From assembly GCF_003018255.1 (NCBI RefSeq), contig NZ_CP027440.1: a DNA stretch of 64,000 nt, one strand, 5' to 3'. Below, piece by piece: positions 3,901 through 59,554 of this stretch. This DNA is from Escherichia coli. Lineage in GTDB: Bacteria; Pseudomonadota; Gammaproteobacteria; Enterobacterales; Enterobacteriaceae. The notes below the pieces were generated by a model. The model made no database searches. It saw nothing but the letters and a program-made list of their open reading frames with translations, and was not told the DNA's origin. Both the position numbers and the translations under genes were made by a program. Position 1 is the stretch's first letter, and every line of letters starts with the position of its first letter.

Positions 3901-5256
3901 TTATTGCTGGCGTTGCACCCACTCTTTTAGCGCCTGACGTGAAATTTTAATACCGCCGTTTTTCAGCTCCGGCGGCAGATTCAGCCAGCGCACCGGTTGT
4001 TGAAAACGAGCCAGCTTGTCTTTCACCCATTCGTCAAGATCAACGGTTTGCTGGTCATACTCCACCACCGCCACCGGTCGATGACCAAACTCCTTGTCGG
4101 CAACGGGGACGATAAACACCTGCAAAACCGCAGGATGTGCAGCAATTACGCGCTCGACTTCTTCCGGCTGAATACCCTCTCCGCCACTGAAGAATAGATT
4201 GTCTAAACGTCCGACAATGGTCAGCTTGCCATTATGCATCTCACCGCGATCGCGCGTAGCGTACCAGCCTTCGTCATTAACCAGTGAAACCAGTTGCCCG
4301 TTACGCCAGTAACCTTCTGCCATACTGGCAGCCCGCAGCCACACTTCATCATTAACGATTTTCACTTCCCGACCCGGCAGCGGCGAACCAACGTCTGCCA
4401 GACCGTCGGCTTCTTTCGCACACACCGTGGAGGCAAACTCGGTCAGACCATAGCCGCAAAAGCAACGAATCCCCTGCTCGCGCGCCTGTTCCGTCAACTC
4501 GACCGGGATAGCCGCGCCGCCAAGTAACACCGCTTTCAGGGAAACGGAACTGCGGTTAACCAGCAAACGCCAGAGTTGTGTTGGCACCAGTGAAGCGTGA
4601 GTACAGCCTGCCAGCATTTGCTCCAATGGCTGTTTATCACGCACCGTCATCCGCGCACCAGCGTATAACCAGCGCCACATAATTCCCTGACCGGAGACGT
4701 GAAACAGCGGTAAAGAGAGCAACCAGTCATCGTGATCGCCAAACGGAATCAACGATAACACCCCTTCGGCACTGGCAAGATGGGCCTGATAAGTATGGAC
4801 AGCGGCTTTCGGCAGCCCGGTAGAACCCGAGGTCAACGTCATTGAGCACAGACGCGTCGGCTGCCACGTAGCGGCATGTGCGCCTTCAACCCGCTGAATG
4901 TGCAGCGACGTTAATGCCGGAAACGTGTTTTCCCCATCCGGCACCAGCGCAAATTGCAGCGTAAGATTGGGGAGCAATTCCTCAAGTAACGGTTGCGGCA
5001 GCTGTGGATTCACGGGCAGCACCCGCGCCCCGCATTGCAGTAACGCCAGCCAGGCCAGCAGCGTTTGCGGCGTATTCCACGCCCGCAACATCACGCCGCT
5101 GCCCTCAACCACACCCTGCATCGCAAAGCTGGAGGCTAATTCATCGACGCGAGCACAAAGCTCGCGCCAGTTGAGTTGCTCGTCATTAAGACGTAAGGCG
5201 ATGGCTTCTCCCCGCACTTGCCGCCAGTGACGCCACGGCCAGTCAGAGAAGATCAT
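3901..5256 (-). CDS. menE: o-succinylbenzoate-CoA ligase
   Basis: 451-aa adenylate-forming enzyme ORF; last gene of men cluster; overlaps menC stop. Confidence 0.9.
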
Positions 5257-39402: not shown

Positions 39403-39476
39403 TTTCACACCGCCAGCTCAGCTGGCGGTGCTGTTTTGTAACCCGCCAAATCGGCGGTAACGAAAGAGGATAAACC

Positions 39477-47552: not shown

Positions 47553-48281
47553 CAGTTTCTCCTTTTCTTGTGGTGCGCGTTCCGCTATCTCACCAATAAA
47601 TGCACGGAAACGCTGGGCATCCCCCGTTTGTAATACGTAATTAAACAGGGCTTTTAGCTGTCTGTCATTAGTGTTCCCTGTAACTAGCAGCGAAACAATT
47701 TGGTCGACTAATCCCAACAGATCGCGCTGACGAATATGTTTCTGAATTAACTCCAACAGCGCCATTTTGCGATGTTGCATAATCTCGTCATCCGGCACCA
47801 CGGTAATATCTACCAGCGGAAAAGCCGATGAATAAATTTTGCGGGCTATAGCAGGCTCGGCAAATTCATCAAGCCAGCAAAGTGAATAAGGATAAGGACT
47901 TCTGCAACCATGATAAAACAGCATCGGGATCACCAATGGAAGCTCTTTATAGCCTGCATCAAGATGGTTTTGCATCGCCGCAATGGAATAGCGCATCATG
48001 CGAAAAGCCATTAATTCTTCCGGCTTACTTTGGTGCTCTATCACTACATAAATATAACCCGCTCCCTCCTGCGTTTTCACAGACCACAAGAGGTCGGAAT
48101 AATATTGCCGCAGGTCTTCATCAATAAAACTGTTTGGTTCCAGTTTTAGCGTTGTTAAATCACACAGTTTGCGCAGCGGCGCGGGAAGATGAATATCAAT
48201 AAAATCCCGCGCGGTGTCTGGATGGCGTAAAAAAGATTTAAATACCGCATCATGCGGCGTGGAAGTTGTCGATATTGTCAT
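47379..48281 (-). CDS. rpnB: recombination-promoting nuclease RpnB (PD-(D/E)xK, YhgA-like)
   Basis: 300-aa ORF, Rpn/transposase_31-like N-terminal domain plus small C-terminal domain. Confidence 0.85.
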
Positions 48282-48477
48282 GGCGTTCCGTCACCCCTCA
48301 AATTTAAGATGACGCGACAATAACCACGATTAATACCCAATGCAGCAGGCAGTTTTTATCTTTGGACAGCGAATTCAGAACTATTTTTAGCGGACTGCAA
48401 CTTTTACATTTCAGCGGAAGCTGACTCGCAAATTCCCCTTGAAAATACTCCGGCAGCGTTAGCCACCGGAGGGGGAA

Positions 48478-49251
48478 TTATTTCAGCGATCCCTTAAGGA
48501 ACTGTTGCAGACGAGGGCTTTGCGGGTTACCAAATAACTGTTCTGGCGCGCCCTCTTCTTCTATTTTCCCCTGATGGAGGAAAATGACGTGAGTAGAAAC
48601 ATGGCGAGCAAAGCCCATTTCGTGAGTCACTACCACCATGGTTTTCCCCTCTTCTGCCAGTTGCTGCATAATACGTAACACTTCGCCTACCAGTTCAGGA
48701 TCGAGCGCCGAGGTAGGTTCATCAAATAGTAAAACTTCCGGTTCCATTGCCAGCGCCCTTGCGATGGAAACACGCTGTTGCTGACCACCGGACAGGTGCA
48801 CCGGGTATTTCCCCTGCGCACGTTCGTCTATCCCGACTTTTGCCAGATATTTCACCGCCCGCTCGCGCGCTTCCTGCTTGCTCAGGCCCAACACCTGAAT
48901 CGGCGCTTCCATGACGTTTTCCAGCACCGTCATATGGCTCCAGAGATTGAAGTGCTGGAATACCATCGTCAGGCGTGTGCGCAATAAGCGCAGCTGATTT
49001 TTATCGGCGACTTTGAGTTGACCGTCTTTATCGCGCACCAGATTGATCGTCTGGCCATTGACCACGATCGATCCTTCGCTCGGTTTTTCGAGGAAGTTAA
49101 TGCAGCGCAGAAAGGTACTTTTCCCCGATCCCGACGATCCGATGATGCTTATGACATCTCCGGCATTCGCTTGCAGTGAGACCCCTTTCAGCACTTCGTG
49201 TTCGCCGTAGCGTTTGTGCAAATCGATAACGTTTAATTTATTCTCGGACAT
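48478..49251 (-). CDS. hisP: histidine/Lys-Arg-Orn ABC transporter ATP-binding protein
   Basis: 257-aa ORF with Walker A (GSSGSGKST) and ABC signature (LSGGQQQR). Confidence 0.95.
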
Positions 49252-49258
49252 CGTATTC

Positions 49259-49975
49259 TCAGTGCGTTGAAGAAGGTTTCACATGCTGCAACCAGCGTTT
49301 TTCCGCTCTGCGAAAGAGGCTGATCAGGACATAAGAGATGATTAAATAGAGCACCGCGGCAATGCCGAAGGCGGTAAAAGGTTGATACGTGGCGGCGTTA
49401 ATATCGCGGGCAATTTTCAGCAGATCCGGCACCGTGGCCGTAAACGCCAGCGCAGTAGAGTGCAGCATCAGGATCACTTCGTTGCTGTATGCCGGTAACG
49501 CAATACGCAGCGCAGAAGGCAAAATAATGCAGCGATACATTTTAAAGGTCGAGAAGCCATAGGCTCTGGCGGCTTCAATTTCCCCATGCGGCACTGAACG
49601 GATTGCCCCGGCAAAAATCTCGGTAGTGTAAGCGCAGGTGTTAAGCGTCAGCGCCAGCACGGTACAGTTCAGACCACTGCGAAAAAAGGCGTTAAGGAAC
49701 TCGGTTCCCTTAACAATCTCCAGCGTGTACATGCCGGAATAAAACACCAGCAACTGAACATACAGCGGCGTACCGCGAAAAATATAGGTAAATAACCAGA
49801 TTGGAAACTGGATGTATTTATTACTTGAGACGCGACCAATCGCCAGAAACAGCGCCAGAACTCCGCCTATCACTACCGACAAAATCAGCAGCCACAGGGT
49901 GATTGCCACGCCAGTAAAGCGATAACCGTCAGTCCACAGCAGTGGTTTCCAGTATTCATGTAAGATTTCGATCAC
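49259..49975 (-). CDS. hisM: histidine/Lys-Arg-Orn ABC transporter permease
   Basis: 238-aa permease ORF; overlaps hisQ. Confidence 0.92.
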
Positions 49976-50658
49976 AGGTCAGACCTCTTCACACCCACGG
50001 AGTAGCGGCGCTCAAGGAACAGCAGCACACCATTGGAAACAGTGGTAAAAACCAGGTAAATCACGCCACAGACGATGGCGAAATAGAACGGTTCCCAGGT
50101 ACTTTTGCCTGCCAGCTGAGTGGCTTTGACCACATCTTCCAGGCCGAGTAACGAAACGAGTGCGGTAGATTTGAGGATCACCTGCCAGTTGTTGCCAATG
50201 CCTGGCAGGGCGTAACGCATCATCGCCGGAAACATGATCCGCCGAAACACTTGCCCACGAGTAAAACCGAACGCCGTCGCCGCCTCTATATGTCCTTTCG
50301 GCACTGCCATAAAAGCACCACGGAACGTTTCGGTAAAATAAGCACCGTAGATAAAACCGAGAGTGATAATACCTGCGACCATCGGATCAATATCAATCTG
50401 CCCGACGCCCATCGCCTCCGTCACCGTGTTTAGCGCAATCTGCAAACCGTAGAAAATCAGCAGCATCAACACCAAGTCCGGCACGCCTCGAATCAGCGTG
50501 GTGTACCCTTCGAAAATCAGCCCCGAAAGCCGATTTTGCGAGAGCTTACCGCCAGCGCCAATTAAACCGATAATTACAGCGAGCACTACAGAGCTGATAG
50601 CCAGCTCCAGCGTGACGAGCGCACCCTGTAAAATAACACCTGAAAACCCATACAACAT
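49972..50658 (-). CDS. hisQ: histidine/Lys-Arg-Orn ABC transporter permease
   Basis: 228-aa permease ORF. Confidence 0.92.
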   Translation of the reverse strand: MLYGFSGVILQGALVTLELAISSVVLAVIIGLIGAGGKLSQNRLSGLIFEGYTTLIRGVPDLVLMLLIFYGLQIALNTVTEAMGVGQIDIDPMVAGIITLGFIYGAYFTETFRGAFMAVPKGHIEAATAFGFTRGQVFRRIMFPAMMRYALPGIGNNWQVILKSTALVSLLGLEDVVKATQLAGKSTWEPFYFAIVCGVIYLVFTTVSNGVLLFLERRYSVGVKRSDL

Positions 50659-50747
50659 GCTGCCTGTCCTGTCGTGTGTGGTGAATTACCGCCTCTTGTC
50701 TCCCTCCGGTTACCCGAAGGGAGCGGACCTTCTTTCACCGATGGCGA

Positions 50748-51530
50748 TTAACCACCATAAACATCAAAATCGAAGTACTTTTTCGCTAATTTCTCGTAAG
50801 TACCGTCAGCGCGCATTTCGGCAAAGGCTTTGTTCAGTGCCTCGCGCAGTTCGTTATCTTCTTTACGCAGGCCCATGCCGGTCCCTACGCCAAACAGTTT
50901 TTCATCTTTAACAGACGGACCACCGAATTTGTAATCTTTACCGACGGGTTGTTTGAGGAAACCTTCGCTGGCAGCGACCTCATCCTGGAACGCGGCATCA
51001 ATACGTCCGGCAGTCAGGTCAGAATAAATGTTGTCCTGCCCCTGATAAGAAACGATTTCAATGCCTTTTGGTGCCCAATGTTCGTTACCGAACGTCTCCT
51101 GGGTGGTGCCCTGCAATACGCCTACCCGTTTGCCTTTCAGCGACTCGACTGTCGGCTGAATGTCGGAATTTTTCGCCACCACCAGACGAGAATCGGCAGC
51201 GTACAGTTTGTCGGTGAAGGCAATTTCTTGCTGACGTTTTTCCGTAATGGAAAGCGATGACATGATGGCGTCAATCTTCTTCGCTTTTAAGGACGGGATT
51301 AACGCATCCAGTGGGTTTTCGACAAACGTACATTGCGTATTGATGCGTTTGCACAACTCCTTCGCCAGATCGATATCGAAGCCAACCAGTTCGCCTTGTG
51401 AATTTTTTGATTCAAATGGCGCATAGGTCGGATCGGTACCGATGCGGATGTTTTGCGGAATCGCAGCAAACGCAGCAGTTGCGCTGGAGAAGGCCAGAAC
51501 CAGAGAGAGCGATAGCACCAGTTTTTTCAT
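50748..51530 (-). CDS. hisJ: histidine-binding periplasmic protein
   Basis: 260-aa ORF with signal peptide; paralog of adjacent argT. Confidence 0.92.
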
Positions 51531-51665
51531 AATGTCCTCAACTGACAGTCTTTTTATAGGGAATATTTACAGGTTTGTTACACTTATCGTGCCATAAAAT
51601 TGACCATCAAGGCAAAATATCCCGCCCCGTTAGACGTATTATTTTTCATTAAAAATGCTTAAGTA

Positions 51666-51720
51666 TGCATTTCAATGCACCACGATAGTGCAACAAACCT
51701 GGCGTGCACCATGATGATCA
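51666..51720. promoter_or_regulatory. cluster of operator-like palindromes between argT and hisJ (NtrC- or ArgR-type candidates)
   Basis: TGCATT-TC-AATGCA perfect palindrome overlapping TGCACC-ACGAT-AGTGCA, then GTGCACCATGATGATCA. Confidence 0.35.
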
Positions 51721-51750
51721 TTCCATCAGGTACAGTTTCCCTGCGACGTA

Positions 51751-52533
51751 TCAGTCACCGTAGACATTAAAGTCGAAATACTTTTTCGCCATCTTGTCGT
51801 AGGTACCGTCCTGACGCAGCTCGCCAAGCGCCTTATTAAACGCCGCCGTCAGTTCAGCATCATCTTTACGTAGCCCTACACCGGTACCGTCACCGAAGTA
51901 TTTTTTGTCTTTCACTGATGAGCCAGCAAAAGCGAACTCTTTACCGGCTGGTTGCTTGAGGAATCCTTCACTGGCAGCAACTTCATCTTGTAACGCAGCA
52001 TCCAGACGTCCTGCAGCCAGATCGGAATAAACCAAATCCTGGTTGGCATAGGCCACCACATCCACGCCTTTGCTACGCCAGGTCTCGTTAGCGTATGCTT
52101 CCTGGGTTGATCCCTGCAGCACACCCACATGTTTACCTTTCAGTGAATCCAGCGTTGGCTGAATCGGTGAACCTTTGGCGGCAATCAAACGAGAATCTGC
52201 GGCGTACAACTTGTCGGAGAAAGCAATCTCCTGCTGACGTTTATCGGTAATGGAGAGCGACGAAATAATGGCGTCGATTTTTTTCGCTTTTAGTGAGGGG
52301 ATCAGCGCGTCAAAGTCACTGGCAACCCAGGTACATTTCACCTGCATCCGTTTGCACATCTCGTTACCGAGATCGATATCAAAGCCAACAAAGTCACCTT
52401 TGGCATCTTTCGATGAGAACGGCGCATAGGTGGTATCGGTTCCGATACGTACCGTCTCCGGTAGCGCCGCATAGCTGGAAGCCGCTGCGGAGAGACCGAC
52501 TAACAAAGACAGAGCGAGAATCGACTTCTTCAT
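51751..52533 (-). CDS. argT: lysine/arginine/ornithine-binding periplasmic protein
   Basis: 260-aa ORF with signal peptide; upstream paralog of hisJ. Confidence 0.92.
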
Positions 52534-52560
52534 ACATAACCCTCAAGTGAAAATGGCTTT

Positions 52561-52590
52561 TTTATGTTGTGTATTGTGTTGTGTGTTTGC
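52561..52590 (-). promoter_or_regulatory. C/A-rich element in argT 5' UTR (GcvB-sRNA target-type sequence)
   Basis: Minus-strand GCAAACACACAACACAATACACAACATAAA between the sigma54 promoter and the SD (GAGGG). Confidence 0.55.
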
Positions 52591-52601
52591 AGGCTCTTTC
52601 A

Positions 52602-52617
52602 TGCAGGTCTTATGCCA
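52602..52617 (-). promoter_or_regulatory. sigma54 (-24/-12) promoter of argT
   Basis: Minus-strand TGGCATAAGACCTGCA: GG and GC spaced as in the TGGCAC-N5-TTGCA consensus, about 70 bp upstream of argT ATG. Confidence 0.65.
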
Positions 52618-52798
52618 TCTTTACGACAACAGTAACATTCAACGTTAAATATGTTAATAAGACGTTGCATTATTGTCCTAAAGTTGAAGATAGCAGGTAT
52701 GGCGGTTGAATCGCAGCGTTTCGATTCATCGAAAGGAACAAAATGTCGAGGATTTGATCGCGGTTGCAAAATTGCCCTGAAACAGGGCAACAATGAGG

Positions 52799-53368
52799 TT
52801 ATGCGCCCTGCCAGCGGGCAAAGAGATCTTCAGGAAGGGTTATCGCAAACTGGTCAAGAACACGATTAACCGTCTGATTTATCACATCATCAAGGGATTG
52901 TGGGCGATGATAAAACGCCGGAACGGGAGGCATAATCACCGCACCGATTTCTGCCGCCTGAGTCATTAAACGCAGATGGCCTAAGTGCAGTGGCGTTTCA
53001 CGCACGCAGAGCACCAACGGGCGACGCTCTTTCAGCACCACATCTGCCGCACGGGTCAGTAAGCCATCAGTATAGCTATGGACAATGCCGGACAGGGTTT
53101 TGATTGAACAGGGTAAAATCACCATCCCCAACGTCTGGAAAGAACCGGAAGAAATGCTGGCAGCAATATCGCGCGCATCGTGTGTCACATCAGCTAACGC
53201 CTGCACTTCGCGCAGGGAAAAATCCGTTTCGAGGGATAAGGTCTGGCGCGCTGCCTGGCTCATTACCAGATGCGTTTCGATATCTGTGACATCGCGCAGA
53301 ACCTGTAATAAACGCACGCCATAAATCGCGCCGCTGGCACCGCTGATGCCTACAATGAGTCGTTTCAT
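52799..53368 (-). CDS. ubiX: flavin prenyltransferase UbiX
   Basis: 189-aa flavoprotein-fold ORF downstream of purF. Confidence 0.92.
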   Translation of the reverse strand: MKRLIVGISGASGAIYGVRLLQVLRDVTDIETHLVMSQAARQTLSLETDFSLREVQALADVTHDARDIAASISSGSFQTLGMVILPCSIKTLSGIVHSYTDGLLTRAADVVLKERRPLVLCVRETPLHLGHLRLMTQAAEIGAVIMPPVPAFYHRPQSLDDVINQTVNRVLDQFAITLPEDLFARWQGA

Positions 53369-53462
53369 AAATAGTTGCCCTGTCAGACTTGCAGGCAGAC
53401 TTTGCAGGATTTCGACGGGAGTTGCAAGTCAGGGTGCCAGACCGGCACCCTGAGCGAAGGCA

Positions 53463-55671: not shown

Positions 55672-55755
55672 GTCGGATGCGGCGTGAACACCTTATCCGA
55701 CCTACGGTTCTACCCCTGTGTAGGCCTGATAAGACGCGCCAGCGTCGCATCAGGC
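55672..55755. repeat. BIME: two inverted REP copies between cvpA and dedD
   Basis: GTCGGATGCGGCGTGAACACCTTATCCGACCTAC and TGTAGGCCTGATAAGACGCGCCAGCGTCGCATCAGGC in opposite orientation. Confidence 0.7.
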
Positions 55756-57673: not shown

Positions 57674-57742
57674 GGTATCCGCTGATTCGTTACGGTGAGA
57701 ATAGCAAAAGGGCAGAGCCAGTGGCCCTGCCCTTATCAGTTA

Positions 57743-59472: not shown

Positions 59473-59554
59473 ATTAGCCTATGCCTTGTACTCGTCATCT
59501 TTCAGGCTGTAACTACGTTGGCTACAGCCTGAAATGTTCCGAGCATTATTCTTG

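Follow-up and report, generated by a model that had tools for sequence, protein, structure and literature searches.

A single-copy RNA hairpin in the hisJ-hisQ spacer of Escherichia coli, a candidate mRNA decay barrier at the position held by REP elements in Salmonella

What lies between hisJ and hisQ in Escherichia coli, and could it do there what a pair of REP elements is said to do at the same junction in Salmonella? The hisJ-hisQ REP pair (BIME/REPIN) of Salmonella typhimurium was reportedly described by Higgins et al. in 1982 and Stern et al. in 1984, at first under the name 'intercistronic regulatory element', and its published role is said to be the setting of hisJ against hisQMP expression through the stability of the upstream mRNA; post-transcriptional control of the his transport operon is also reported to be the subject of work by Stern, Prossnitz and Ames in 1988. 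We examined the corresponding E. coli spacer in a stretch of 64,000 nucleotides (the window), in which open reading frames and their translations place argT-hisJQMP on the minus strand, with the genes in the order purF, ubiX, argT, hisJ, hisQ, hisM and hisP (Table 1). A preliminary description of the spacer had pointed to an imperfect GC-rich inverted repeat, had likened it to REP elements and had supposed that it stabilizes the hisJ segment of the message.

A 289-nt query over the hisJ-hisQ site was matched to complete E. coli genomes, 5424 of 5426 of which contain it at 95% identity or more with the genes annotated as hisJ and hisQ; the hisJ annotation is carried by E. coli genomes matching at 98-100% identity. 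The gap is also 89 nt long in K-12 MG1655, which differs from the window by three substitutions over 131 aligned nt. The final codon of hisJ accounts for one of them, and the other two lie immediately 5' of the inner hairpin, which is itself unchanged. A small open reading frame on the minus strand that runs across the hairpin (50586-50738, GTG start, 50 aa) was rejected because the spacers of other genera contain many indels and unrelated sequences, leaving no conserved reading frame.

Table 1. Features of the argT-hisJQMP region and of the hisJ-hisQ spacer, in window coordinates.
Feature	Position	Strand	Basis or details
purF-ubiX intercistronic hairpin	53429-53453	minus	UCAGGGUGCCGGUCUGGCACCCUGA; U-less, GC-rich, ΔG -19.5
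argT	52533-51751	minus	
hisJ, histidine periplasmic binding protein, upstream cistron	50748-51530	minus	ORF and translation
hisJ-hisQ intercistronic spacer, 89 nt	50659-50747	minus	
Extended structure, outer helix P1 around P2	50691-50728	minus	minimum free energy fold of 50690-50733
Inner hairpin P2	50700-50723	minus	5' arm 50723-50714 CUCCCUUCGG, GUAA loop 50713-50710, 3' arm 50709-50700 CCGGAGGGAG
CA-rich single-stranded stretch, predicted GcvB R1 seed pairing site	50658-50683	minus	CACCACACACGACAGGACAGGCAGC-A; overlaps the hisQ ribosome-binding site
Weak hisQ Shine-Dalgarno candidates	AGGA 50670-50667; AGG 50665-50663	minus	read from the sequence
hisQ, membrane permease subunit, downstream cistron	49972-50658	minus	ORF and translation
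hisM	49259-49975	minus	
hisP	48478-49251	minus	
Intrinsic terminator at the operon end after hisP	48448-48471	minus	10-bp stem then UAUUUUC; ΔG -18.0

A repeat finder returned exactly the arms quoted in the preliminary description, CTCCCTCCGG (50700-50709) and CCGAAGGGAG (50714-50723), each 10 nt long, 90% complementary and separated by a 4-nt loop. The repeat is imperfect, as had been said, on the plus strand, where it has a C·A mismatch, but not on the mRNA strand, where a G·U pair leaves ten pairs uninterrupted. The resulting hairpin, P2, reads CUCCCUUCGG-GUAA-CCGGAGGGAG in the mRNA and has 7 G-C pairs and one G·U among its 10 bp; it starts 24 nt after the hisJ stop codon and ends 41 nt before the hisQ ATG. 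Its sense fold has a predicted ΔG of -18.6 kcal/mol (z -4.2), with none of 200 shuffles folding as well, and the antisense (plus-strand) fold is weaker by 5.5 kcal/mol, at -13.1 kcal/mol. Taken within its spacer context P2 has a z of -4.3 (0 of 200 shuffles), and the entire spacer one of -2.97 (1 of 200 shuffles). By strength P2 is approximately the fifth distinct uninterrupted minus-strand hairpin of the 64-kb window, and it is not on the plus-strand list. Given its strength beyond the shuffles and its rank in the window, the hairpin is more than a product of chance, though strong intergenic hairpins are common in the E. coli genome.

Around P2 the extended fold predicts a short outer helix, P1, in which GUCCG (50728-50724) pairs with bases within 50698-50691, and an A-rich internal loop, ACAAGAG (50699-50693), lies on the 3' side between P2 and the 3' strand of P1. 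Other very strong hairpins of the window are found at 39407-39431, 57708-57734 and 59500-59534 (ΔG -20 to -22), the first of which folds well on both strands, as expected of a bidirectional terminator.

The hairpin is not a REP element, because the REP core is missing and the sequence is single-copy, and the 'REP-like' of the preliminary description is accordingly wrong as a family label. Even with up to 2 mismatches allowed, the REP core CTTATC[C/A]GGCCTAC has no match in the E. coli spacer or the spacers of the other Escherichia loci. As controls, the same scan was positive in all 16 long Salmonella and Citrobacter spacers, and the pattern found 4 REP cores elsewhere in the 64-kb window (a convergent pair at 55692-55733, and single motifs at 17883-17896 and 4780-4793). 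A 40-nt hairpin query (blastn, word size 11, E ≤ 10) was matched in 5425 of the 5426 complete E. coli genomes, at a median of 1 site in each. The spacer does contain an extragenic, transcribed, imperfect palindrome, a trait that it shares with REP elements but one that is generic and insufficient for membership. The K-12 record shows no repeat features even at real REPs, and the absence of a REP there was not counted. An Rfam covariance-model scan of 48000-53000 (E ≤ 10) reported no relevant family and one unrelated chance match, at 51666-51684.

For comparison across the family we collected 80 Enterobacteriaceae loci with HisQ as the query and delimited the hisJ-hisQ spacer in each, obtaining lengths of 57 to 289 nt. 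Most of the non-REP spacers (59 of 64) carry a GC-rich hairpin without interruptions, at about -14 to -23 kcal/mol. The distance from the hisJ stop to the start of this hairpin is 8-27 nt (median 23), and that from its end to the hisQ ATG is 18-60 nt (median 40). The simple scan missed the other five, of which four give an interrupted fold and the fifth is a doubtful assembly. Stems are bulged in L055, L063 and L079; the full fold recovers the first two, and the third, L079, is the doubtful assembly, which contains a homopolymer error. The 289-nt spacer (L060) carries an Atlantibacter-type hairpin, and the L053 spacer has a different hairpin. The hairpin sequences themselves form unrelated classes: CUCCCUUCGG is the Escherichia type, CUCCCUCCUGC is found in some Citrobacter, CCCCUCCC in Enterobacter, Lelliottia, Kosakonia, Leclercia and others, CCAUCGCGCGC in Klebsiella and Raoultella, a hairpin beginning CCCAUCG in Kluyvera and GCGCCCCGG in Atlantibacter, with further types besides. 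Within E. coli, the 40-nt query is identical over the inner hairpin in nearly all of 5425 genomes.

Covariation was assessed separately for class A (Escherichia, Citrobacter, Enterobacter and relatives) and class B (Klebsiella, Raoultella, Kluyvera, Pluralibacter and relatives). Because plain MAFFT followed by RNAalifold gave a register-shifted and weak consensus for class A, that alignment was dropped and the class was realigned with a covariance model (43 sequences, 41 distinct rows). In this alignment, which is structure-fitted and so biased towards the given structure, 91.5% of cells are paired as opposed to 44-61% with the partners slid, double-sided changes occur in 6 of 13 pairs, and the covariation score is 0.262 as opposed to 0.152 when shuffled (0 of 500). 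The class B alignment, made with plain MAFFT from 18 sequences, is unfitted and free of this bias; here 90% of cells are paired (29-51% with the partners slid), 8 of 12 pairs are compensatory, and the score is 0.515 compared with 0.238 when shuffled, again 0 of 500. The outer helix covaries as well, the Escherichia/Citrobacter type having GCC/GGC in P1 and the Enterobacter type GUG/CAC, with pair counts of UA:28 CG:8 UG:3 and GC:30 CG:10.

The pairing is also biased towards one strand. Among 51 distinct hairpins the sense fold is stronger than the antisense fold in 33, equal in 10 and weaker in 8, the sequences being non-independent, and G·U pairs on the mRNA strand account for 32 of 480 stem pairs, with the sense strand more stable by a Wilcoxon test (p = 3e-5, on the same non-independent sequences). 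The compensatory changes, the fixed position and the sense-strand bias together show that an RNA hairpin at the hisJ-hisQ position is under selection on the mRNA strand, largely irrespective of its sequence. Such structural conservation is evidence that a hairpin is selected, and not of the process that the hairpin serves.

The REP elements of this junction give a second view of what is kept. The 16 long REP-bearing spacers come from two Salmonella subspecies and 14 Citrobacter loci, and other Citrobacter species retain the simple hairpin. The REP module, a convergent pair in 15 of the 16 spacers and a single REP in L012, takes in alignment the place of the inner hairpin only; the flanks around it are kept, with GATAAAGCCC on the 5' side and AAAAGAGGC on the 3' side, then CACCACACACGACAGGACAGGCAGC-AUG. 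By position and by replacement, the E. coli hairpin is the apparent functional counterpart of the Salmonella REP pair. Both are located at the same operon junction between the same flanks (GATAAAGCCC ... AAAAGAGGC ... CACCACACACGACAGGACAGGC) and both are stable sense-strand structures without a U tract, whereas the E. coli hairpin is a unique sequence of 24 nt that is present once per genome, is about 100 nt shorter and has no REP core. Since the class A type is common to Escherichia, part of Citrobacter and the Enterobacter group, we take the simple hairpin to be the older of the two; this phylogenetic distribution suggests that the hairpin came first and was later replaced by the REP pair.

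The site has also received an insertion sequence. In E. coli TUM14697 (NZ_CP128888.1; L002 1451-3003) the IS50-like element ISEc13 interrupts the hisJ-hisQ hairpin within its loop, with TCGGGTAACC duplicated on both sides, so that the stem is split and hisJ is separated from hisQMP. Only this one genome of the 5426 has the insertion.

The 3' half of the spacer contains a GcvB target site, which the preliminary description had passed over. A search restricted to the R1 seed region of K-12 gcvB placed the best predicted duplex at spacer nt 66-90 (50682-50658), ACCACACACGACAGGACAGGCAGCA, with a ΔG of -22.8, and where the inner hairpin is overlapped the R1 duplexes are no stronger than -12.1. An RNAduplex run of the spacer with full-length GcvB was discarded, as it gave meaningless long-range pairings where the R1-restricted search gave a localized site. 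The weak hisQ Shine-Dalgarno (AGGA/AGG) lies inside the predicted GcvB site, the CA-rich region is largely unpaired in the centroid fold, and an ACAGGRC block at the Shine-Dalgarno is near-invariant across all 80 loci. Experimental support comes from Miyakoshi et al., by whom hisQ was verified as a GcvB R1 target (PMC9299463). It was chosen, as 'hisJ-hisQ', from RIL-seq, CLASH and MAPS data and was tested by an intraoperonic GFP fusion; GcvB represses this hisJ-hisQ fusion and ΔR1 relieves the repression (PMC9299463). That the GcvB site contributes independently to low hisQ expression is documented.

Between the hairpin and the GcvB site, directly 3' of the stem, class A and REP-type spacers keep an A-rich AAAAGA(G) motif, ACAAGAG in E. 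coli (50693-50699), which may be an (ARN)n site for Hfq or an internal loop under constraint. A different arrangement is seen in many Enterobacter, Leclercia and Lelliottia spacers, where the hisQ Shine-Dalgarno, AGGGC, is predicted to pair with CCCC after the hisJ stop, at spacer nt 2-11 (for example in L028, L030, L038, L043, L045 and L054). As modeled, this Enterobacter-type pairing suggests translational coupling through ribosome-dependent unmasking. Long-range sequestration of the hisQ Shine-Dalgarno was considered and rejected as part of the E. coli element, with 0% partner mass in Escherichia, and the pairing was also not recovered by RNAalifold.

As to what the E. coli hairpin does, we consider it on balance probable, by analogy with the systems discussed below, that it is a barrier to 3'→5' exonucleases that stabilizes the hisJ mRNA. 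The stem-loop would be carried both on the hisJQMP transcript and on the argT-hisJQMP read-through transcript, its 10-bp GC-rich inner helix with a GNRA loop being seated on the short outer helix. Entry for the exonucleases would be provided by a cut in the mRNA, or by a premature 3' end, in the unstructured A-/CA-rich stretch downstream, which would be the same region where Hfq and GcvB act on the hisQ ribosome-binding site. From there, 3'→5' decay by PNPase, RNase II and others would halt at the base of the hairpin, and because the exonucleases would stall at the stem, the RNA ending in hisJ would persist and outlive the hisQMP part, which would be lost. The stem-loop begins 24 nt past the hisJ stop codon, a distance at which melting by a terminating ribosome is not expected. 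Acting together, the barrier, the weak hisQ ribosome-binding site and repression by GcvB would be expected to yield more binding protein than membrane components.

The spacer has what would be expected of such a stabilizer, namely a stable sense-strand stem-loop in a co-transcribed spacer (-18.6 against -13.1 kcal/mol) and a structure kept by selection, as judged from covariation and positional conservation. Exonuclease stalling at stems of this size is said to be established biochemistry, in work attributed to Spickler and Mackie (2000). A 10-bp stem can nevertheless be degraded by RNase R or with the help of the degradosome helicase RhlB, and given these activities the protection that it affords may be modest.

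The intercistronic REP of E. coli malE-malF was reportedly proposed as a block to 3'→5' exonucleases by Newbury et al. in 1987. In that operon, as in hisJ-hisQ, the hairpin follows the binding-protein gene of an ABC importer and is proposed to favor the binding protein over the membrane subunits; the malE-malF element is a REP, however, and the hisJ-hisQ hairpin a single-copy, lineage-specific sequence. We know of no sRNA that derives from the hisJ-hisQ hairpin. At gltI-gltJ, a conserved Rho-independent terminator gives rise to a short gltI mRNA and to the SroC sponge (Miyakoshi et al. 2015, PMC4474525). Both glt and his are amino-acid ABC operons of the GcvB regulon in which a structure right after the binding-protein gene splits the fates of the cistrons, although the gltI-gltJ element is described as a genuine terminator and the his hairpin is without a U tract. 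The hisJ-hisQ hairpin is most likely an unannotated member of a long-known class of operon-internal stabilizers, and as such will not surprise a specialist.

If the hairpin does act as a decay barrier, the E. coli his transport operon would rely on a single-copy hairpin of its own for what REP sequences became famous for in Salmonella, and the function would reside in a stable stem at the hisJ-hisQ position and not in REP as such. Hairpins and REP modules would turn over at this one site between fixed flanks, which include the outer helix, the A-rich motif and the site for GcvB, and the 89-nt spacer would offer a natural system in which a decay barrier and an sRNA target set the subunit ratios of an ABC transporter. 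This would be a refinement of textbook post-transcriptional operon control.

A more elaborate version, which we regard as doubtful though conceivable, would join the CA-rich GcvB site, the A-rich stretch and the hairpin into one integrated switch for discoordinate expression. Pairing of GcvB/Hfq at the hisQ ribosome-binding site would then trigger RNase E cleavage or Rho termination just downstream, and the hairpin would shield the hisJ mRNA from the 3' decay that follows, so that the sRNA would lower the membrane and ATPase components, which are shared with ArgT, and spare the binding protein. As a corollary, the Salmonella REP pair would have taken over a pre-existing stabilizer role, replacing the inner stem on the same outer helix.

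It is also possible, but in our judgment improbable, that the hairpin works during transcription, as a leaky terminator or attenuator at which some RNA polymerases stop after hisJ, unaided or via NusA, NusG or Rho; the hisJ:hisQMP ratio would then be set as the RNA is made and not by its decay. The stem-loop is GC-rich, like that of a terminator (10 bp, 7 G-C, ΔG -18.6), and is similar in stability to the stem of the hisP terminator (-18.0), the tail in spacers of the Atlantibacter type is in part rich in U (4-5 T in 10 nt), and the paralogous gltIJKL architecture has its Rho-independent terminator in the gltI-gltJ spacer (PMC4474525). The tail of the E. coli stem, however, is ACAAGAGGCG, with no U tract (0 T in 10 nt), and in the 62 homologous spacers scored the tail has 0 T in 39 and 1 T in 12. 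In place of a U tract the conserved 3' flank has its opposite, a run rich in A (AAAAGA), and a terminator scan reports the hisP terminator but not the hisJ-hisQ hairpin. A canonical intrinsic terminator was rejected because no U tract follows the stem.

Mapped RNA 3' ends bear on the decay barrier as well as on termination. Term-seq of cells in LB and M63 (Adams et al. 2021) has no 3' end in the spacer (none in K-12 2425930-2425989, and no hisJ or hisQ entry), and it has none at the hisP terminator either; since the hisP terminator is missing too, the absence from the spacer is weak evidence, and the operon probably did not reach the threshold. Neither hisJ nor hisQ is listed in the supplements of TERMITe and SMRT-Cappable-seq, and the literature searched yielded no E. 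coli 3'-end, half-life or expression data for the hisJ-hisQ site. A mapped end is available for the purF-ubiX hairpin, which starts 10 nt past the purF stop and has a stem of 10-11 bp, with a mismatch in the second pair in K-12. The 'primary purF' 3' end of Adams et al. 2021, at K-12 2428685, corresponds to window position 53427, 2 nt beyond this stem, demonstrating that U-less hairpins do mark stable 3' ends in the E. coli genome. Like the hisJ-hisQ hairpin, the purF-ubiX hairpin is a U-less GC-rich stem in a co-directional spacer; unlike it, it belongs to another operon, is of unrelated sequence and is the one of the two with a mapped Term-seq 3' end.

As with leaky termination, we give little credence to the idea that the hairpin is chiefly a scaffold or insulator for sRNA action, locking away its G-rich and CU-rich arms, presenting the A-rich stretch to Hfq and keeping the GcvB site and the hisQ ribosome-binding site single-stranded, with any effect on hisJ mRNA stability secondary. 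The arrangement would fit, in that the GcvB site is directly downstream of the hairpin, AAAAGA(G) is conserved immediately 3' of it in class A and REP-type spacers, and the CA-rich region is predicted to be largely unpaired. Class B spacers (Klebsiella, Kluyvera and others), however, have a strong hairpin although they lack AAAAGA and the long CA-rich run or show them in much reduced form, and elsewhere a 100-nt REP module can stand in for the hairpin; both observations point to a generic structural role.

That the palindrome has no function as RNA, being a neutral relic (a mobile-DNA remnant or target), a DNA-level cruciform or a protein-binding site, is highly unlikely: REP elements and an IS have inserted at exactly the hairpin position, so the site is permissive or attractive for mobile DNA, but compensatory changes keep the pairing in two independent sequence classes, the tolerance of G·U is specific to the mRNA strand, at 32 of 480 stem pairs, and nearly all of 5425 E. 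coli genomes have the inner hairpin unchanged. An antisense or plus-strand RNA, or a DNA cruciform, was likewise disfavored, since the fold of the plus strand contains a C·A mismatch and loses 5.5 kcal/mol relative to the sense fold, and since G·U pairs recur on the sense strand.

Other ends were noted along the operon. Rho termination regions are listed within argT (2427233) and hisP (2423859). A very strong Term-seq 3' end at K-12 2427825 (window about 52567, minus strand) lies in the argT 5' UTR, 34 nt upstream of the argT start, where a CA-rich stretch, ACACACAACACAAUACACAAC, ends; argT is among the listed targets of GcvB.
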